DNA of 64,000 nucleotides from an archaeon (GCA_041657425.1 JBBABY010000005.1:22834-86833); one strand, 5' to 3'; counted from the first letter of the stretch, positions 54,206 through 62,913 are shown. The notes: generated from the sequence alone by a model not told the origin. Translations and numbers: made by a program.

Positions 54206-54288
54206 GCAGAGATGGCGGAGTGGCCAAACGCGCCAGCCTTGAGAGCTGGAGTCGAAAGACTACGCGAGTTCGAATCTCGTTCTCTGCG
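54206..54288 (+). tRNA. tRNA-Ser (TGA)
   Basis: Acceptor GCAGAGA/TCTCTGC, anticodon stem CCAGC/GCTGG with loop CTTGAGA, long variable arm, T-arm GCGAG-TTCGAAT-CTCGT. Confidence 0.85.
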
Positions 54289-54312
54289 CTTAAAATTGTT
54301 AAAAGATCATTT

Positions 54313-54651
54313 ATGTCAGAAGAAAAACCAATCATTACTTTTGATGATTTCATAAAATTAGACATAAGAATAGGAACAGTTATAGAAGCAGAAAAAGTAC
54401 CAAACAGTTCAAAGCTTCTAAAGCTAATAATTGACTTTGGAGATTTTAAAAGACAAATACTTGCAGGAATTGGTACCAAGTATTCTCCTGAAGACTTACA
54501 AGGTAAACAAATACCAGTAATAGTTAATCTTGCACCAAGAAAGATGGCGGGGTTAGTTAGTCAAGGAATGATTATGGCTGTAGGGGATAATGATGTGGAA
54601 GCTCTTTTGTTTCCAACAGAAGCCGTAAAATCAGGAAGTTCAGTTCACTAA
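54313..54651 (+). CDS. tRNA-binding protein (Trbp111/CsaA, EMAP-like OB fold)
   Basis: FIKLDIRIGTVIEAEKVPNSSKLLKLIIDFGD...QILAGI...GKQIPVIVNLAPRKMAGLVSQGMIMA matches the Trbp111/CsaA pattern; real start at the ATG at 54313 (the track ORF extends into the tRNA). Confidence 0.75.
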   Translation: MSEEKPIITFDDFIKLDIRIGTVIEAEKVPNSSKLLKLIIDFGDFKRQILAGIGTKYSPEDLQGKQIPVIVNLAPRKMAGLVSQGMIMAVGDNDVEALLFPTEAVKSGSSVH

Positions 54652-54666
54652 AAGGAAGGGTAAATT

Positions 54667-54936
54667 ATGGATAAAATTAAAATAAATTATTTTATTGATG
54701 TTCTATTAATAATATCATTTATTGTAGTAGCAATAACAAGCCTTGTAATATTTTTCTTTCTTCCAAGTGGAGTAAGACAAGCAGGTTATCAAACATTTTT
54801 AGGATTAACAAAACATTCATGGGGTAATATTCATACAATCTCAGGATTTGCAATGATAATTCTGTCATTGATACATTTGATATTACATTTCAAATGGTTA
54901 ACAACAATGTCAAAAACAATATTTAAGAAAAAATAA
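54667..54936 (+). CDS. small membrane protein (DUF4405-like)
   Basis: 89 aa with 2 TM helices and conserved His residues (HSWGNIHTISG...HLILHFKW). Confidence 0.4.
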   Translation: MDKIKINYFIDVLLIISFIVVAITSLVIFFFLPSGVRQAGYQTFLGLTKHSWGNIHTISGFAMIILSLIHLILHFKWLTTMSKTIFKKK

Positions 54937-55070
54937 TTTAGTTGTGTGTCGATAAGCAACCAGTTAGTGCCATACAAATTCTGGCTGGGCGCCAACTCAG
55001 GAAAACAAAAGTTTTCAGGATGCCAAGAAATCGCAGCGACGATTTGTTGTGCACGACCGCAACCGGTTGT

Positions 55071-55153
55071 GCAGAGGTGGTGGAGTGGTCAAACGCACTA
55101 GCCTGGAAAGCTAGAGTCGAAAGACTACGCGAGTTCGAATCTCGTCCTCTGCG
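55071..55153 (+). tRNA. tRNA-Ser (GGA)
   Basis: Acceptor GCAGAGG/CCTCTGC, anticodon stem CTAGC/GCTAG with loop CTGGAAA, long variable arm, same T-arm as tRNA-Ser(TGA). Confidence 0.85.
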
Positions 55154-55369
55154 ATTAAATTTAGATCAACAGTTTGCTGTAAGTGAGCTTGTAGACTGGA
55201 TTAAAGGCAAGAAGCTCGCCCACGACTACGAAACAGGACTAATTTCTAAAATCCCGCTAATCTTCGAAGATACTCAAAAACATACGTACGTTTCTGAAAA
55301 GTGTTCTCAACAAAATCTTTTTAAATACAATATACAATAACTATTTATAGAAATAAAGTGTGATAAAAA

Positions 55370-56047
55370 ATGGTTGTAAGAAAATTAACAAAAGGCAGTT
55401 TCCCAAATGCAAAAAATATTAAGAGCATTAAAATAGGAGGTCGTAAATTCGTTGCAGAAAAGAAACAGACAGCAGACATAAAACTAGAAATAAATAAAGA
55501 AAAAATTAAAATAATCAGTTCTTTAAAAAAACGTCTAGAGAGAGGAGAATTAAAATTAACCAGTGCCGATTTAATGAAATTAAAGGCACAGGGAATTAGC
55601 CTGATTGAATTAAGAAAAGTAATAGCTCCAGAATATTTGTTAAAAACTTTGAGTTTAAAAGCATTTGTAAAAATATATGGTCAAGAAGATGTAGTTAAGG
55701 CTTTTAATGGTATTTCCCGATTAATATTTGATGCTGGTTTGAGGGAGACAGTTTATGCTATTGATCCAAAATATTTTAAAAATGAATTTTCATTAAAAGA
55801 AATTGTGAATAAGCTTTTTAAATACGGCTACAAGGATGTGTCACAGTATAGGGCCCCAGATATGCAAAGCTATATGTCACAAAATGGACGTTATGAAGTA
55901 GCAAAGGCTTGGGGGCTTAAGAATATAATAGAAACATTTGGGATTAAAGAGACTATGGTGGCTATGGGTAGATCAGAATCTGAACTTAGATCTTTATTAA
56001 ATGCATCAGATTACGATTTAGGGAAAGCTTTTCCTCGCGAATATTAG
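55370..56047 (+). CDS. hypothetical protein (islet segment 1)
   Basis: 225 aa, no family recognised; its TAG stop is formed by the first bases of the att-like repeat. Confidence 0.4.
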   Translation: MVVRKLTKGSFPNAKNIKSIKIGGRKFVAEKKQTADIKLEINKEKIKIISSLKKRLERGELKLTSADLMKLKAQGISLIELRKVIAPEYLLKTLSLKAFVKIYGQEDVVKAFNGISRLIFDAGLRETVYAIDPKYFKNEFSLKEIVNKLFKYGYKDVSQYRAPDMQSYMSQNGRYEVAKAWGLKNIIETFGIKETMVAMGRSESELRSLLNASDYDLGKAFPREY

Positions 56048-56090
56048 AGTCTCACGACTACGCGAGTTCGAATCTCGTCCTCTGCGATTT
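56047..56090 (+). repeat. direct repeat of tRNA-Ser(GGA) 3' end (att-like, copy 1)
   Basis: GACTACGCGAGTTCGAATCTCGTCCTCTGCGATT is identical to 55120..55153 plus 2 nt. Confidence 0.85.
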
Positions 56091-56111
56091 TTTATTTTGT
56101 GTTTAAATTGC

Positions 56112-57509
56112 TTATTTCAAAAACACACACTCTTCATTTTTTATTCGCGGATATTTTTTGTTTGACCAAGCAATTGTTCCACCAGAAATGTGAATAGCAT
56201 TATATCCTTCAATAATTAAATTTTTTGCAGCTTTAAAGGACTTTTCTCCAGTTTCACAAATAAGATAGATGTTGTTTTCTTTTTTTATTTTTTGTTTATA
56301 GTTTTTTATAAAAGCATCCATCGGTATGTTTGTAAATCCAGGAATGTGATAATCCCCAAATTTATTTTCAATTCTTAGGTCTATAAAAATATTGTTTGGA
56401 TTTCTTTTAATGTCTGTATTTAATTTTTCAGAATAGGTTTCTTTAAGTATTTTATAAAGTTTAGTTACAGTTATAGAATCTACTTTATCTTTTGTATGTT
56501 TAGTTGTAATTTCATAAGGAAGTAATTCTTTGTTAATTACTTTTGGAAAATCAGACGTTGGAAGATATGAAAAATATTCATCTAGATATGGTAATGGCGT
56601 GTCGTAACAAATAAATACGCAAGTTTTATTCTTAAGTTTATTTCTCTTAATATATTCTAATAACCCTGCAAGAGCAAACCCAGAACTTGGGCCAACTAAT
56701 AATCCGCTTCTAATTAATTTTAAGCTTTGGGTATAAGATTCAACACTTCCAATCTCGATAATATCATCTGCATTATTCTTCCAATCAAAAGCAATCATTT
56801 TCAAAAGATTTTTTGTTCTAACGCCTGGTACTAAGTTATTTGGTTTTCTTATTACCCCTATTGCCTTGAGGTTATCGTTTTTCTTCTTTAAGTAATTACT
56901 AGTTCCAAGAAAGGTTCCAGTTGTTCCAAGTCCTGAACAAAAGATATCAATCTTTCCATTTGTTTGAATCCAAATTTGTTTTCCTGTTATCAAACTATGC
57001 GAATTAGGATTATTTAAATTATCATATTGTCCAAAGTTAATATATTTCTCAGATTTAGCCATTTGTTTAGCCTTATAGATCCCGCTATTTTCATCATCTG
57101 GATCTGGACAAATTGGTTCATTATTAATAATCGGAGTAATCCCAAATAACCTTAGCATATTTAATTTATTTTTTGTAACTTCATTTGAAACAAATGCTTT
57201 CATTGAATTTAATCCATAATGCCTGCCAATTATTCCTAAAGAATAAGCAGTATTCCCTGAAGAATTTTCTATGATTGTAGGTTTATTTTGTAATTTCTTT
57301 TGAATATGTGCTGAATTAATCATCTCATATGCAGGAATAGATTTAATATTAAGTAAAGGCAAAGTGTTTTGTAATTTTGCAAATATTCTAATCCCATTTT
57401 TTCTAAAAGGATTACATTTATCATCAAGCTCTACAAGAGGAGTCATATGATTATGAGGATTGATATAATCCTTTATTGCATTCTTTCCAGAATAAACATT
57501 ATTTTTCAT
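56112..57509 (-). CDS. PLP-dependent cysteine synthase/CBS-family enzyme fused to C-terminal rhodanese domain
   Basis: PALP motifs (TPLVEL, SSGNTAYSLG, GLGTTGT) followed by a rhodanese module with active-site loop YLICETGEKS. Confidence 0.65.
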   Translation of the reverse strand: MKNNVYSGKNAIKDYINPHNHMTPLVELDDKCNPFRKNGIRIFAKLQNTLPLLNIKSIPAYEMINSAHIQKKLQNKPTIIENSSGNTAYSLGIIGRHYGLNSMKAFVSNEVTKNKLNMLRLFGITPIINNEPICPDPDDENSGIYKAKQMAKSEKYINFGQYDNLNNPNSHSLITGKQIWIQTNGKIDIFCSGLGTTGTFLGTSNYLKKKNDNLKAIGVIRKPNNLVPGVRTKNLLKMIAFDWKNNADDIIEIGSVESYTQSLKLIRSGLLVGPSSGFALAGLLEYIKRNKLKNKTCVFICYDTPLPYLDEYFSYLPTSDFPKVINKELLPYEITTKHTKDKVDSITVTKLYKILKETYSEKLNTDIKRNPNNIFIDLRIENKFGDYHIPGFTNIPMDAFIKNYKQKIKKENNIYLICETGEKSFKAAKNLIIEGYNAIHISGGTIAWSNKKYPRIKNEECVFLK

Positions 57510-57515
57510 AATCTT

Positions 57516-58460
57516 TCATTTAAATTTAAAATTAAGATCGATCTGAGAACTTAGATCTCCAAATCTGTCTTTAATGCTTGGTTGAGAAACATATTTCGTG
57601 TGTAATAATTGAAGTCTAGACAATCTTTTGTTTGGGTCAGGAGTAATTTTATTAATCTCTAAATATAGTTTTTCTAATACTTCTAAATTGTTAGTTTCAA
57701 ATTTATCTAAAGTAACTGCCCCACCGTACTTATCAAGTAATTGTAGATATTTAGAATCTCTAATAAATCCAATTATTTTTTCTGCACCAACATTGTCTAT
57801 TAAAAATTTTAAATCATCTTCATTTTTTATTTTATTTCCAAGAATAAAGAAATTATCAACATTGTTTTTGCTTAAGTTTTCAAACATTTTAAACAATTCT
57901 ACACTTTTTTTTGTAGGCTCTACAATTAGTACAATTGCATCAAACTGCAAATGCATTGAAGATGCAAATAAATCTGTTCCTGCAACCATGTCAGAAACTA
58001 TATATTCATTTTTATCGTATGTGTGACTAAGAATAATTTCTAAAATTTCAAGATTGTTATGATAACAACTAGTTCCTACACCGTGGACTTCATAAGTTCC
58101 AACAACTGCTAAGTATGCATTATCTGAAATCTCTTTACAGAAATTAGAAATAAAATAATCTTCTTTAGTAATTGTTATTAATTTAGAATTAACAGAAGGA
58201 GGAGTAGTCTTTCTAAATTCGTCATTATTTTTTATAAGATCGTTTGTTCCTTTTAAGTAGTTTTTAATTTTTAATTTTAGATTATTATTTGAAATATATT
58301 CTTCAGAAGACACTGTACAATTAAATAACTCAGGAAGATGCACATTTATGTCTGCATCAATCACAAGTACAGGTTTTCCTTTAGAAATAATTAATTTACT
58401 AAATAATGCAGAAAGGGTAGTTTTACCAACGCCGCCTTTCCCAACAAATGCTATTCTCAT
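57516..58460 (-). CDS. CooC/MinD-like P-loop ATPase
   Basis: Deviant Walker A AFVGKGGVGKTT, DADIN motif, CooC-like Cys region HGVGTSCYHN; start moved to the internal Met at 58460 because the upstream 17 codons lie in AT-rich promoter-like DNA. Confidence 0.6.
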   Translation of the reverse strand: MRIAFVGKGGVGKTTLSALFSKLIISKGKPVLVIDADINVHLPELFNCTVSSEEYISNNNLKLKIKNYLKGTNDLIKNNDEFRKTTPPSVNSKLITITKEDYFISNFCKEISDNAYLAVVGTYEVHGVGTSCYHNNLEILEIILSHTYDKNEYIVSDMVAGTDLFASSMHLQFDAIVLIVEPTKKSVELFKMFENLSKNNVDNFFILGNKIKNEDDLKFLIDNVGAEKIIGFIRDSKYLQLLDKYGGAVTLDKFETNNLEVLEKLYLEINKITPDPNKRLSRLQLLHTKYVSQPSIKDRFGDLSSQIDLNFKFK

Positions 58461-58491
58461 ACATATATATATTTTTCTTCCTTTATATATA

Positions 58492-58510
58492 TTAATGATA
58501 ACCATTATCA
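58492..58510 (+). promoter_or_regulatory. Fur-box-like operator TTAATGATAACCATTATCA
   Basis: 16/18 match to the classical Fur box core ATAATGATAATCATTATC; inverted repeat TGATAA-N3-TTATCA; sits between divergent fur and the ATPase/Cys-synthase-rhodanese operon, 14 bp before the fur ATG. Confidence 0.6.
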
Positions 58511-58523
58511 ATAAGGATAAAAT

Positions 58524-58883
58524 ATGTCTAAATCAAGAAGAACTATACAAAAAGAACTAATTTTAAAAGAAATAGAAAACATGAAAGTTTTCTTCTCTGC
58601 AGCAGAACTTTATAGTAGAATTAATTCTAAACACAAAATTGGTATTGCAACAATATATAGAATTCTTAATCAGCTAACTAAAGATTATATTATTTATTCA
58701 TTTGTTTGCGATAAACGAAACATTTATTCAAAACACGGAAGAAACCACTGCCATTTCGTTTGTGAAGATACTGGCGAAATTATTCATTTTAATATAGATT
58801 CTTTAGATTTCTTAAAAGATAAACTTCCTGGAAAAATTATTTCTTTTCAAATAGAAATAAAAGGTATTAAAAATAAGAAATAA
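58524..58883 (+). CDS. fur: Fur-family metalloregulator
   Basis: N-terminal wHTH (SAAELYSRI...IGIATIYRILNQL) and metal-site region HGRNHCHFVCEDTGEIIHF. Confidence 0.75.
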   Translation: MSKSRRTIQKELILKEIENMKVFFSAAELYSRINSKHKIGIATIYRILNQLTKDYIIYSFVCDKRNIYSKHGRNHCHFVCEDTGEIIHFNIDSLDFLKDKLPGKIISFQIEIKGIKNKK

Positions 58884-58983
58884 TGATATATTTAGTTTTA
58901 TAAATTAAATATAAATTTTTTTATAGAAAACCACTTTTTATAAATTATTTCTTTCTATTGTTGTTTAAGGGGGGAGACAAAAT

Positions 58984-59292
58984 ATGACAAATGTATTTAA
59001 AGAATTTAAAGAGTTTTTACAAGAGTATAAAGTAATTGGCTTAGCAATTGCTTTTATTATTGGTGCGGCAATTACAACACTAGTAAAGTCTTTAGTTGAT
59101 AATATCATCATGCCAATAATCACACCATTCATTCCTGGTGGGCAATGGCAAACTGCAACATTAAAGCTTGGTCCAATAGTTCTAAACTGGGGCGCATTTG
59201 CTGGGGCATTACTTAATTTCATAATTATTGCTTTTGTAGTATTTATGATTGCAAAATATATGTTTAAAGAAGAAACAGTTACAAAAAAGTAA
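58984..59292 (+). CDS. mscL: large-conductance mechanosensitive channel
   Basis: FKEFKEF...GLAIAFIIGAAI...NIIMPIITPFI...IIIAFVVFMIAK are hallmark MscL segments. Confidence 0.8.
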   Translation: MTNVFKEFKEFLQEYKVIGLAIAFIIGAAITTLVKSLVDNIIMPIITPFIPGGQWQTATLKLGPIVLNWGAFAGALLNFIIIAFVVFMIAKYMFKEETVTKK

Positions 59293-59372
59293 GTAACTTT
59301 CTTTTTTATTTTTTTAGTAAGCGGCTAGTGAAAGAATGTGACTTGCAAAAAAGTATCGGTACTAGAATGCGA

Positions 59373-59415
59373 GAGTCTCACGACTACTCGATTTCGAATC
59401 TAGTCTTATGCAATT
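59373..59415 (+). repeat. degenerate direct repeat of tRNA-Ser 3' end (att-like, copy 2)
   Basis: GAGTCTCACGACTACTCGATTTCGAATCTAGTCTTATGCAATT; 6 mismatches over the 34-nt tRNA-derived part. Confidence 0.7.
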
Positions 59416-59538
59416 CAATTCTAAGTAAGCATTTTGCGGCAAGTTGATTTGTATCGCGTGCATTGACTAAATTGTTTTAGATATATTTTTAAATTAGTTC
59501 TTATTAGTATATTTAGATTTTTATAAAGGAGGAATAAT

Positions 59539-60003
59539 ATGTTAAAAGAATTATCTATGAGCGAATATATTACAAAGTACACATCTATTTTACATTTAGG
59601 TGCTGGAATTTTATATATACTATACGGAATTGGATTATTAGTCCTTAAAAATTTCGCATCAAATCTTACTTCAATGTCAGGATTATTTGGCAGTGCATTT
59701 TTAAAAAATATGACTATTGGTCTTGCAATAATATTATTTATTGCAGGAATTTACACTTTATTAACAGCATATGGCCTTTGGGGGTATAAAAATTTTGGAA
59801 GAATAATGTTGTTAATAGAAATGTATGCTTTGGCTGCATTAATTGCAATAATGTTAATTATTTCAATATTTTCAATAATTACATTTTGGCAAGTTGGATT
59901 AATCTATTTCCTTGCAATGATGTATTTGGGATTGATTATCTTTTTAAGCATATATCTATTCCAAGCACATCCAGAAATGGTTGCCCTTTTCAATAAAATG
60001 TAA
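59539..60003 (+). CDS. membrane protein (islet segment 3)
   Basis: 154 aa, 4 TM helices; AGGAGG RBS. Confidence 0.4.
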   Translation: MLKELSMSEYITKYTSILHLGAGILYILYGIGLLVLKNFASNLTSMSGLFGSAFLKNMTIGLAIILFIAGIYTLLTAYGLWGYKNFGRIMLLIEMYALAALIAIMLIISIFSIITFWQVGLIYFLAMMYLGLIIFLSIYLFQAHPEMVALFNKM

Positions 60004-60073
60004 AACACATTTTTGCCCAATTCTTTGGGCACATTTATTTTATTAGATAGTAATAGATAAATTAGGGAATATC

Positions 60074-60724
60074 ATGAATAATGAGCCAGTAACTAATACA
60101 AATAAAGAATATCCTAAAAAAAAAGGGATATCTGTCAAATTTTTAATATCTCTTGGTATAATTTTAATAATTATAATTTTGGCAGTTATTTTGGTTTCCA
60201 AAGCAATATATAATAGAGATATTAGTACAAATATAAATAATTTTGATGAATGTATTGAGGCAGGAAATCCCGTAGTTGCGGGGACTTATCCTATACAATG
60301 TAAAACACTAGACGGAAAACTATTTATTTCTACTTCAGATAATATTGAGAATAAACCTAAGCATGTTGATGATTTAATATTTGTAGAAAGACAAGCAACT
60401 AATTTTGAGGAATGTTTAAACTGGGGTTTCGTTTCCCAAGGTTATCCTGAATATTGTACAGATGGGAATTCTACATTTATTAATCCTAAACATACAAGTG
60501 CTCCAACACTAGCAGAACAACAGATTTGTAATACTGATAGCGAATGTACAGGACTGCCAAATCCTTGTCATAGAACAAGGGTATGTATTAATAAAAAGTG
60601 GGTGTCTTTTTACAAAATTAAGCCAGCAGCGTGTACTTTAGAAATAGATCTTTTAGCAGTGTCTCCTGGAGATTGTGTTTGTCTAAATACAGTCTGTACA
60701 AATAAGAAGTTAATTCAAAGTTAG
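60074..60724 (+). CDS. secreted Cys-rich protein with internal duplication
   Basis: N-terminal TM anchor; duplicated module FDECIEAGNP...YPIQCKT / FEECLNWGF...YPEYCTDG; 14 Cys; its TAG stop is supplied by the att-like repeat. Confidence 0.45.
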   Translation: MNNEPVTNTNKEYPKKKGISVKFLISLGIILIIIILAVILVSKAIYNRDISTNINNFDECIEAGNPVVAGTYPIQCKTLDGKLFISTSDNIENKPKHVDDLIFVERQATNFEECLNWGFVSQGYPEYCTDGNSTFINPKHTSAPTLAEQQICNTDSECTGLPNPCHRTRVCINKKWVSFYKIKPAACTLEIDLLAVSPGDCVCLNTVCTNKKLIQS

Positions 60725-60767
60725 AGTCTCATGACTACGCAAGTTCGAATCTCGCCATCTGCGAATT
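60723..60767 (+). repeat. direct repeat of tRNA-Ser 3' end (att-like, copy 3)
   Basis: AGAGTCTCATGACTACGCAAGTTCGAATCTCGCCATCTGCGAATT; 4 mismatches over the tRNA-derived part. Confidence 0.75.
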
Positions 60768-60798
60768 ATTATTTAATAAACTATTTTGTGAAAAAAAC

Positions 60799-61125
60799 AT
60801 GACTAGAAAAAAAGACGCAGGAGAATTGTTACATTATTTTTATAAATCGTCTATAGTTGATCACTCCATTTCTGCAGAAGATTTACTAAAAGAAATAAGA
60901 TGGGGAAGTTGGAGATTAGAAAAAGCAATTAAATATCTAAGAGATGTTGATGCGATTGAAATTACTCTATTTAAAGAAAAGATTGAAAGATTACAAAAGT
61001 TTGTAATAGTGGGCCTAACAAAAACAGGTATCCAAATAATAGAAGATAAATCCAAATTTAAAACCACTTTCGGATTTGAAATAAACTTAGAGAGCACAAA
61101 GTGGAGTTGGAATACTAAACGATAA
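60799..61125 (+). CDS. hypothetical protein
   Basis: 108 aa, no family recognised. Confidence 0.35.
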   Translation: MTRKKDAGELLHYFYKSSIVDHSISAEDLLKEIRWGSWRLEKAIKYLRDVDAIEITLFKEKIERLQKFVIVGLTKTGIQIIEDKSKFKTTFGFEINLESTKWSWNTKR

Positions 61126-61186
61126 ATATTGCGCGCGAGCTGAACGCTGTCGTTTTTGGGATGAAGCACTTTTTCTAAAAGGGCTC

Positions 61187-61209
61187 CACTGGACAGCTAC
61201 CCCCGAAAA
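61187..61209 (+). promoter_or_regulatory. GC-rich motif CACTGGACAGCTACCCCCGAAAA upstream of DEDD exonuclease gene (copy 2)
   Basis: 18-nt core identical to 21335..21352 upstream of radA; 31 bp before the ATG at 61240. Confidence 0.4.
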
Positions 61210-61239
61210 CTTTAAACACTATTTCTTTCATAGTTATTT

Positions 61240-61824
61240 ATGAATTACTTATATGTAGATATCGAAACTGTTCCTGTGGATAAGGAAAAACATTTATCTC
61301 TAGATGAAGAGGAAAGAAAGAAACTCTTAAATCCAATTGATTCAAAAATTATTGCAATCGGTCTAAAGTCAACTAAAGATAATAAGCTAGTCATTCTTCA
61401 ATCTGATAATGAAAAGGAAATGTTAACTGAATTTTGGAAGATTTACGACAATTTTAGAGCAAATAGTTCTTTAACAAACAAGATTGTGGGCTTTAACATT
61501 AAGCAGTTTGATATTTCTTTTTTAGTGACTAGAAGCTTTGTTAATGGAGTTACAGTTGTTCCTTTCGTCTTAAAAGAGATAATCGACATTAGAGACCTAT
61601 TAACTTGCTTTAAAAGAGGGCCAACAAGAGGCACTTTAAAGGAATTTGGAGAGATTATTGGCGTGGTCTTAGTAGAAGACATGGACGGCTCAAAAGTGGC
61701 TGAAACTTACTGGTCAGGAAATATTGATTTAATCAAGACTTACTTAGCAAAAGACATAGAATTAACTGAAAAGATTCACAACAAGGTAATGGAACTAGGA
61801 CTAGACAAAATAAGAGAATGGTGA
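61240..61824 (+). CDS. DEDD-type 3'-5' exonuclease (PolB-exo-like, RNase H fold)
   Basis: Exo I YVDIETVP (D-x-E), Exo II VGFNIKQFDISFL, C-terminal Y-x3-D region (YLAKDIELT). Confidence 0.6.
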   Translation: MNYLYVDIETVPVDKEKHLSLDEEERKKLLNPIDSKIIAIGLKSTKDNKLVILQSDNEKEMLTEFWKIYDNFRANSSLTNKIVGFNIKQFDISFLVTRSFVNGVTVVPFVLKEIIDIRDLLTCFKRGPTRGTLKEFGEIIGVVLVEDMDGSKVAETYWSGNIDLIKTYLAKDIELTEKIHNKVMELGLDKIREW

Positions 61825-61895
61825 AATATCTATTTAAATATTTAATGTTCATATATATTACTACAAGACTATAATATTTGGAGAAATGATAAAAC

Positions 61896-62126
61896 ATGGA
61901 AAGACAACCAGTAGATGACAATAACCATAAAATGATTGGAAATATAGTTTCAATTGGATATGATCCAGAATTAGAAGTTCTAGAAGTAGAATATCAATTA
62001 GGCTATTTATACCAATATCTTAAGGTTCCTAAAGAAACTTACGACAAATTAATGAACGAAAGAAACAAAATTACATTCGTTCAAGAAAGAATCGCAAAAG
62101 TTTATAAAAATCAAAGAATCAAATAA
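61896..62126 (+). CDS. KTSC-domain protein
   Basis: IVSIGYDPELEVLEVEYQLGYLYQYLKVPKETYDKL matches the KTSC domain pattern. Confidence 0.5.
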   Translation: MERQPVDDNNHKMIGNIVSIGYDPELEVLEVEYQLGYLYQYLKVPKETYDKLMNERNKITFVQERIAKVYKNQRIK

Positions 62127-62184
62127 GATTCTTTATTTTTAATTTTTAAATAAGTTTAAATAATCTCTTTTTCTATAGTTATTT

Positions 62185-62913
62185 ATGATAAGTAAAAATT
62201 CTGAACAAAGTTATAGAGAAATTATTTTACTTATACACCCATTATTCAATTTATTTCTAGATAAAATTAGTAGAATAAATTTCAATAATAAGGAAGAGCT
62301 ATTAAAATATTTAGTTGGAAGAGAACCATTATTGATTAATTTAAAAGAAACAGTTAAAGATTATGCAAAAATTATTCTAAAATATAAAAATAAAAAAGGC
62401 GCATTATTTGTTTTAATTAATCCGGCAGCAAATAGTTCTCTTTCTTTTAATGTAGATGGCAAGAAAGTAAATTGGAAAAATTTGCCAGAATGTCAAGCAC
62501 TATTTTCTATAGTAAATATCATAAGTGCTTTTGGAAGAAAAGAGTTAGGTGAAAGATTTGTAATAACTAATTTTAGTCCGGAAGACGGTTACACAAAATT
62601 ATTTTCTGAGAAAATCTATAATAAATTAGATAAATATCTAGAAATAAGAGCTTTTGGAGAATACACTGATGGTTGTGTTTATGATATTTCAAATAGAGTT
62701 GTTGAAGAATTACAAAACAGAGAATTTAGAATAATGGACTTAGAGACTTTAAGAGATCATTGTATATCACTAAACGAGATAGAAACGAAACTAGATAAGC
62801 TATTAGAAGAAAAAAGGAAAGTATCAAAAATTAAAGAAAATCAACAAAAGAAAGAACAAATTCAAAAAGTAGTTTCTATGTTAAATAATTATAAGAAATC
62901 CAAAGCAAAATAA
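62185..62913 (+). CDS. hypothetical protein
   Basis: 242 aa; no family recognised; Lys-rich coiled-coil C-terminus. Confidence 0.4.
   Translation: MISKNSEQSYREIILLIHPLFNLFLDKISRINFNNKEELLKYLVGREPLLINLKETVKDYAKIILKYKNKKGALFVLINPAANSSLSFNVDGKKVNWKNLPECQALFSIVNIISAFGRKELGERFVITNFSPEDGYTKLFSEKIYNKLDKYLEIRAFGEYTDGCVYDISNRVVEELQNREFRIMDLETLRDHCISLNEIETKLDKLLEEKRKVSKIKENQQKKEQIQKVVSMLNNYKKSKAK

Follow-up and report, generated by a model that had tools for sequence, protein, structure and literature searches.

Here we explore an array of repeats in a 64,000-nucleotide (nt) stretch of archaeal DNA (GCA_041657425.1, JBBABY010000005.1:22834-86833; hereafter the window, with positions counted from its first letter), in which the tRNA-Ser(GGA) gene at 55070..55154 (+) is followed by three direct orphan copies of its own 3' 42-47 nt. 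The repeats are, with high probability, attachment-site (att) scars of small elements with a tyrosine integrase of the type known from the Sulfolobus spindle-shaped viruses (SSV-type; type I, 'suicidal'), which targets the 3' half of tRNA-Ser. Two such elements are delimited: E1 (55155-56090), made up of an integrase stump, an orphan open reading frame (ORF1) and the repeat rep1 as attR, after which the native flank of the tRNA gene follows; and E3 (59370-60767), made up of the repeat rep2, a second integrase stump, a pair of genes that code for membrane or secreted proteins, and the repeat rep3 as attR. The host is a low-GC (~29% GC) uncultured archaeon, probably a member of the DPANN.

According to the mechanism that we propose, the free circular element would have its att site, attP, within the 5' end of the integrase gene. 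Recombination with the variable arm, T arm and acceptor strand of the tRNA gene would regenerate a working tRNA (attL) that runs into the downstream part of the integrase gene, int(C), and the far end would keep a tRNA 3' fragment (attR) beside a very short upstream part, int(N). Since the integrase gene is split on integration, the element would be trapped; it would then decay by deletion, with its cargo and the att scars remaining. Catalysis of the att x att recombination by this integrase is predicted from sequence.

Repeats of the tRNA-Ser(GGA) 3' end

The tRNA-Ser(GGA) gene was identified by ARAGORN and by the Rfam tRNA model (58.7 bits), and the same programs place a tRNA-Ser(TGA) gene at 54206-54289. 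A repeat finder joined the 3' ends of both genes with 56044-56097, 59370-59423 and 60721-60774 into one family of five members (D1), with a spacing of 933, 3326 and 1351 nt along the array. The att part of the tRNA-Ser(GGA) gene, attL of E1, corresponds to its 3' 42 nt (55113-55154), hence variable arm, T arm and 3' acceptor strand. By repeat finder, pattern scan and tRNA alignment rep1 was delimited to 56044..56090 and rep3 to 60721..60767; rep2, at 59370..59416, is an attL-type junction that is followed in register by the start of int(C). All three lie on the plus strand. A 31-nt pattern with at most 3 mismatches occurs at 5 sites in the window and at none in 100 shuffles.

Over the 42 tRNA-derived nt, 39 (rep1), 33 (rep2) and 36 (rep3) are identical to the tRNA, and outside a 4-nt loop these counts become 38/38, 32/38 and 35/38. 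A first-pass annotation of the window by a model had reported the identical copy of the tRNA 3' end, which we find as a perfect 34-nt match at 56057-56090, as well as degenerate copies near 59373 and 60723, which are rep2 and rep3. It had also observed correctly that two ORFs take their stop codon from a repeat: according to the ORF list, 55370-56047 and 60074-60724 end in a TAG formed by the first bases of rep1 and rep3, respectively, and both do so in one and the same reading frame. In the integrase frame rep3 contains a TGA, which was made by a change of TCAC to TCAT. All junctions of the array recur in assemblies ERZ27247350 and SRR18595299, which are possibly not independent of the window's source, and hence the observation of the repeats stands.

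The sequence that precedes the 34-nt match in the repeats had been described as a non-tRNA prefix, from which it was concluded that the copies derive from one another. This does not hold. The prefix, GAGTC-TCAC-GACTAC, is the tRNA variable arm with another loop, the resident tRNA having GAGTC-GAAA-GACTAC. When metagenome contigs were scanned for the variant with a TCAY loop, 18 loci were obtained, and in 16 of these the sole match is part of a genuine tRNA-Ser gene with anticodon GGA or AGA, in the neighbourhood tRNA-Ser(TGA)-tRNA_bind-(DUF4405)-tRNA-Ser. Among genome relatives (related loci are given L numbers where they must be told apart) the loop reads TCAC (L011), TTAC (L010), GCAA (L007) or GAAA (L006). 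Since the TCAC loop sits in genuine tRNAs of relatives, the prefix is tRNA-derived and is no proof of copy-from-copy descent. The tRNA-Ser(CGA) gene was considered as source of the TCAC arm and ruled out, since its variable arm differs.

The TCAC arm is what an element-borne attP would bring to each attR. The tRNA of the window keeps the GAAA loop, rep1 carries the element's TCAC and rep3 the derived TCAT; in the attR of related locus L031 the 3' T-stem base and the flank are still those of its host tRNA-Ser(TGA). From these polymorphisms in loop and T-stem we infer that strand exchange would take place within the T arm. A separate observation concerns the anticodon: more distant relatives have a tRNA-Ser with anticodon AGA (A34) where the window has GGA (L015:3689-3771, L021:6694-6778, L028:3470-3554 and seven other loci). 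A34 tRNAs are unusual in archaea, for which no A34 deaminase is known.

Integrase remnants and related elements

Directly behind the tRNA gene lies a 5' remnant of int(C) of 62 codons (55155..55340, +; identified by tblastn). It is the distal part of ORF 54942-55340, which runs in frame through the 3' half of the tRNA gene into the stump, such that the att sequence is translated. Homology to integrases ends at ~55301, the rest of the gene having been deleted. In tblastn the stump shows 71% identity over 49 amino acids (aa) to the integrase of L030 and 84% over 44 aa to those of L029 and L031; when the att-encoded part is included, identity to the reconstructed L030 integrase is 76% over 71 aa (E=5.6e-31). 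Another seven members of the integrase family match the same stump at E<=1.2e-10, and the stump is also found in L033 and L034. By itself it has no match in Pfam, and only the non-catalytic N-terminal part is kept in the window.

The second remnant is an int(C) start of ~55 nt behind rep2 (59414..59472, +), detected by local alignment. The 55-60 nt that follow rep2 align in register from the att end with L029 (z=8.0, 0/1000 shuffles) and L033 (z=6.5, 0/1000), and the same alignment gave nothing comparable after rep1 and rep3. Most likely rep2 is what remains, on the 3' side, of a tRNA-Ser gene that was formerly complete. We also tried to read rep2 as a full pseudo-tRNA: the anticodon-stem match GTACTAG...AATGCG requires a 5-nt deletion and is not significant, and no covariance-model match was obtained. 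With stumps behind both the tRNA gene and rep2, the first-pass description of islets without an integrase, possibly inserted by an unrecognised mechanism, has to be abandoned; its other suggestion, an array of integrated elements that have decayed, holds in essence for segments 1 and 3, given these stumps and the empty sites in relatives.

An empty site for E1 is seen in L037, where the 3' end of the tRNA gene runs straight into the flank that in the window follows rep1. The 17 nt after rep1 (56091-56107) are the native downstream flank of the tRNA, with a homology to L037 of 91.7% over 48 nt, and such a native flank is what an attR should carry. An empty site for E3 is found in L006 and L007, where the mscL gene abuts p108, the conserved gene right of the array (60799..61125, +), with a 40-nt spacer and without E3 or any att trace. 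The first-pass annotation had proposed this comparison of relatives, and presence and absence do vary: E1 and E3 are missing from relatives, the content of the flank differs each time, and among 20+ related loci checked orphan tRNA 3' fragments are restricted to the lineage of the window and the integrase-bearing L030 and L031.

These two metagenome loci have a second orphan copy of the tRNA 3' end 4.8 kb downstream of the tRNA gene. In L030, ORF 795-1682 reads out of the tRNA for 269 further codons and matches PF16795 ("Archaeal phage integrase") at E=6e-28; the L031 integrase does so at E=3e-29. The L030 integrase furthermore matches PDB chains 3UXU, 3VCF and 4DKS ("probable integrase") at E=4e-11, which we take to be the catalytic domain of the SSV1 integrase. 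In L030 a frame of 20 codons starts with an ATG just 5' of the distal copy and continues across the repeat in phase with the integrase, so that the circularised element would encode a single protein of 308 aa, consisting of int(N), the att-encoded segment and int(C). In L031, int(N), att and int(C) likewise form one frame across attR and attL, in the +1 frame. The attP site of the free element thus forms part of the integrase reading frame, near its 5' end, and is translated as ...LAWKARVSRLREFESRPLR...; int(N) counts only about 20-28 codons. Type I integrases are described as having attP inside a gene that is split into int(N) and int(C), with PF16795 as their marker (PMC7253208; PMC8371274), and by this split-gene architecture the L030 and L031 integrases are type I (SSV-type, "suicidal").

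A protein search yielded 57 related clusters, all with PF16795. Two family members that were examined read out of tRNA-Ser(GCT) and tRNA-Thr(GGT), which brings the target sites of these integrases and their relatives to tRNA-Ser(GGA), tRNA-Ser(GCT) and tRNA-Thr(GGT). Since the TGA and GGA tRNA-Ser genes have common 3' halves, both can be targets. Neither the att pattern nor the integrase found a match in the viral collection searched, and there was no sign of viral nature.

The att-bounded 4.8-kb elements themselves (L030:788-5658 and L031:115-5006) have no replication or structural genes. Besides the split SSV-type integrase each contains a single gene, which encodes a very large secreted protease: in L030 this is a 1254-aa S8 subtilase, in L031 a C25-like protein (844 aa). 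In L031 the 3' end of int(C) is cut short by an overlapping DDE transposase gene. That locus (L031:115-5830) is a hybrid, its attL being tRNA-Ser(GGA) and its attR the 3' end plus flank of tRNA-Ser(TGA); beyond attR follow a tRNA_bind gene 100% identical to that of the window and a second tRNA-Ser(GGA) gene. This arrangement suggests either recombination between two tRNA-Ser loci via the element or a strain-chimeric assembly.

The cargo of E1 is ORF1 (55370..56047, +; 225 aa, TAG stop in rep1), an orphan without a match in Pfam that falls in only 3 protein clusters among 5.8 billion proteins. It is intact in two other samples at 79% aa identity, with a ratio of nonsynonymous to synonymous substitution rates (dN/dS) of ~0.47 versus 0.11-0.21 for the neighbouring metabolic genes; the whole E1 cassette occurs in two other samples at ~90% nt identity. 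A possible int(N) start remnant, an ATG with upstream sequence, overlaps the 3' end of ORF1 at 55984..56016 (+). It is a weak match to L031 4865-4895 (local alignment of 33 nt, z=4.5, 0/500 shuffles), and the integrase frame closes there after 6 codons. ORF1 and the ORF that ends at rep3 were themselves considered as int(N) and rejected, since their frame differs from that of the integrase and a TAG is in frame for both. A frameshifted fusion of int(N) and ORF1, hinted at by the 8-mer GGAAAGCT (anticodon loop) 16 nt 5' of rep1, was dismissed since it is not conserved in L033 and L034. Contigs L005, L033 and L034, of ~950 nt, were examined as possible excised circles, but their ends fit repeat-bounded short-read assembly.

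The cargo of E3 consists of a multi-pass membrane protein of 154 aa (59539-60003, +) and a Cys-rich protein of 216 aa with an N-terminal anchor, whose TAG stop lies in rep3 (60074-60724, +). Neither matched Pfam or PHROG, and scans of the cassette ORFs against these databases gave nothing informative. A comparison of composition, also proposed in the first-pass annotation, was of partial use: the tetranucleotide composition of segment 3 (59417-60720) lies at the 97th percentile of window pieces of the same length, a weak distinction, and GC and tetranucleotide content do not discriminate the other segments from the rest of the window.

Segment 2 and alternative explanations

Segment 2, between rep1 and rep2, contains a CysK-like pyridoxal phosphate enzyme-rhodanese fusion (56112-57509, -), a CooC/ParA-type P-loop ATPase (57516-58505, -), a Fur-family regulator (58524-58883, +) and MscL (58984-59292, +). 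All were identified by Pfam, and MscL by synteny as well; the first-pass gene list is hereby confirmed (PALP plus rhodanese, CbiA/ParA-type ATPase, FUR and MscL). The annotation had counted this segment as one of three islets. It might then represent the genes carried by a second element, E2, that lay between the other two and has wholly lost its integrase, in a series of three successive integrations. Three att copies in direct orientation are most simply read as such pure tandem accretion, and secondary integration into attL or attR has been described (PMC7253208). Also, HerA directly follows the tRNA in distant relatives, so the intervening DNA was added at some time, and the CysK-rhodanese/CooC pair is clearly foreign. 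Homologues of its first member are 100, 88 and 87% identical and then drop to 50% or less, few of them being named at that level and these mostly as Patescibacteria; dN/dS of the pair is 0.11-0.21. Against accretion, the pair is flanked in L037 by an Alr-like gene and by MetRS, with no att sites present. Judged by these comparisons the pair is a laterally acquired two-gene module without att boundaries, and it looks like a module transferred across domains that moves without att sites.

Other evidence likewise argues against an element E2. No integrase remnant follows rep1, from which the CysK stop codon is 21 nt away, and the left edge of the segment continues the native tRNA flank as in L037. 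MscL is 74-82% identical to its syntenic orthologues, a divergence similar to that of core genes (CTP synthase is 78-82% identical in L006, L007 and L011), and it adjoins p108 or the KTSC gene in L006, L007, L011, L019 and L027, abutting p108 without att trace. Since MscL is syntenic in relatives it belongs to the chromosomal flank and not to the cargo of an element. We infer that segment 2 is not an element and not att-bounded, being a plastic chromosomal flank of the tRNA, and consider tandem accretion rather unlikely.

The junction left of rep2 points in the same direction. The sequence 59293-59353 aligns with the entire MscL-p108 spacer and p108 start of L007 (z=9.7, 0/1000), and its distal part alone still gives z=5-6 against the p108 start of L006, L007 and L024, where p108 orthologues are 67-73% identical. 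It follows that the start of p108 is present twice, intact right of rep3 and decayed left of rep2, where the upstream region and first ~6 codons can be recognized at 59326..59353 (+). Site-specific recombination does not yield such a duplication, which is a further argument against accretion and suggests that the copy left of rep2 marks a join that was not site-specific. Possibly one-sided homologous or illegitimate recombination that duplicated the p108 start joined the flank to the rep2-E3-rep3 block or to the one left of it. We give this step an even chance of being right; an illegitimate join would explain why no att site is found between MscL and p108 in relatives and why rep2 behaves as an attL-type site.

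Several points weigh against integrase scars as the origin of the repeats. The window contains no catalytic integrase domain, and the assignment rests on stumps of 49-71 aa and 55 nt. The int(N) remnant at rep1 is weak and none was seen at rep3. The tRNA homology of all three repeats starts at the same base, and the attR of L030 and L031 reach ~17 nt further into the anticodon stem-loop than rep1, rep2 and rep3 do. No relative among viral contigs and no free circular form was found. The illegitimate join is deduced from one short duplicated stretch, and a search for the parental order tRNA-E3-att-p108, or for E3 at another location, returned the same arrangement only.

E1 and E3 might also be integrase-less cassettes that are still mobile, being excised and re-inserted in trans by the integrases of incoming related elements. 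A related exogenous integrase can excise trapped elements of the suicidal-integrase type (PMC8371274), and the related elements are themselves minimal, with an integrase and one gene. That ORF1 is intact in three diverged strains, its dN/dS of ~0.47, the two cassette ORFs that end exactly at the att boundary in the same frame, and the remaining identity of rep1 and rep3 outside the loop would all fit. However, rep2 is badly eroded (32/38), and neither a circular junction nor a second position was found for E1 or E3, the contigs of ~950 nt being what repeat-bounded assembly gives. Also, tblastn with 58 integrase sequences detected no intact integrase gene in the window, and genes called in the 10 kb beyond it contain no integrase or recombinase Pfam family. 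We therefore regard continued mobility as distinctly unlikely. The broader idea of a family of minimal tRNA-Ser-targeting cassettes, 1-5 kb in size, that encode one or two secreted or membrane proteins and are shuttled in trans by related integrases, is highly doubtful; if true, it would imply integron-like gene traffic at tRNA-Ser of small-genome (DPANN-type) archaea, and the common att boundary and the ORFs ending there would be selected features.

An origin without mobile elements, by which the repeats are pseudo-tRNA fragments from local duplication or rearrangement of the tRNA-Ser cluster, would be in line with the clustering of TGA, GGA and CGA tRNA-Ser genes with common 3' halves in ~10 kb and with the hybrid of GGA and TGA loci in L031. 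It is very improbable and largely refuted, being contradicted by the integrase stumps directly behind the tRNA and rep2. Moreover, the repeats comprise 3' parts only, with no ARAGORN call and no Rfam tRNA match at E<=10 in 55900-60900, no significant similarity to the 5' half of the tRNA was seen ahead of any repeat, and relatives with the same tRNA cluster lack orphan fragments. That the contig is a chimera joined at repeated tRNA ends we hold to be extremely improbable: short-read assemblies do break at such repeats (L004, L005, L013), but L013 spans the tRNA to the stump, L004 spans stump, ORF1, rep1 and CysK, and L001 and L042 both span CysK to p108 through rep2 and rep3.

Gene gain at the locus and known systems

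In at least six more distant relatives HerA lies within 0.2-0.5 kb of the tRNA gene, as compared to 7.8 kb in the window. The interval contains Alr and MetRS in L022 and L024, MscS and MscL in L007, L011, L019 and L027, and two membrane proteins plus MscL in L006. In the window the part between the array and HerA (60799-62913) holds p108, a PolB-exonuclease-like 3'-5' exonuclease (61240-61824), a KTSC-domain protein (61896-62126) and an orphan protein of 242 aa. Because HerA directly follows the tRNA in distant relatives, these genes may be an older captured element with eroded att sites.

The gene order tRNA-Ser(TGA)-tRNA_bind-DUF4405-tRNA-Ser(GGA)...HerA-TBP-like-tRNA-Ser(CGA) is conserved across relatives, and the three tRNA-Ser genes lie within ~10 kb (window 54206-55154; L001:9326-9415). 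Some relatives have two small ORFs (~50-66 aa and 91-94 aa) between tRNA_bind and DUF4405 that are not present in the window (L022:3227-3716, L024:4362-4646, L030:132-623).

The region 3' of tRNA-Ser(GGA) thus appears as a hotspot of gene gain in reduced genomes, with different content in each relative examined, and self-splitting integrases would also operate in low-GC uncultured, probably DPANN, archaea of non-thermal habitats. In the annotation of such genomes, captured DNA can be recognized at little cost by orphan tRNA 3' fragments and by ORFs that run out of a tRNA gene.

Gene capture in archaeal chromosomes is known for Sulfolobus and the Thermococcales (She et al. 2001, as cited in PMC8371274; PMC7253208), and suicidal integrases have been framed as a trait of hyperthermophiles (PMC7253208; PMC8371274). 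Our literature search found no paper linking them to DPANN. Like SSV1/SSV2, pTN3 and pT26-2, the elements related to those of the window have integrases with a PF16795 domain and attP inside the integrase ORF. They likewise target the 3' part of a tRNA, with int(C) beside the tRNA and int(N) beside the tRNA 3' fragment (both halves being present in L030 and L031), and as in SSV-type gene capture the trapped element would decay and its cargo stay in the chromosome. The elements described here differ from the SSV type in their host, an uncultured archaeon with ~29% GC that comes from non-thermal samples, activated sludge being the source of one related contig, in an int(N) of only ~20-28 codons, in the tiny size of the related two-att elements (4.8 kb, integrase plus one protease gene) and in that only integrase stumps are left in the window. 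Furthermore, Badel et al. (2020) found no tandem integrations of suicidal-integrase elements in their data (PMC7253208), whereas here two scars lie in one array.

Other systems show a more superficial similarity. Cis-mobilizable elements (CIMEs), for example of the ICESt1/ICESt3 family, are att-flanked segments without recombination genes that lie in tandem beside a tRNA-type target, and they derive from lambda-type integrases encoded beside att. E1 and E3 are similar in being att-flanked, beside a tRNA and without a functional recombinase; they are different in that att lies inside an integrase gene that is destroyed by integration, and mobilisation in trans is hypothetical. The array resembles those of integrons in its short cassettes, which have one or two genes and are followed by a ~45-nt hairpin-capable repeat at which ORFs end. 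Unlike integrons, it lacks attC/attI architecture, its repeats are actual 3' halves of a tRNA gene and its cassettes contain integrase stumps; no recombinase domain was found by Pfam among the scanned window proteins, a scan that included no search aimed at IntI. Islands of the pNOB8 type (type II) or lambda type differ in having an intact, uninterrupted integrase gene beside att, which is not present in the window. The mechanism is accordingly the known gene capture by type I archaeal integrases and not a new one; mildly new are the host lineage, low in GC, uncultured and probably DPANN, and the occurrence of two scars in one array.

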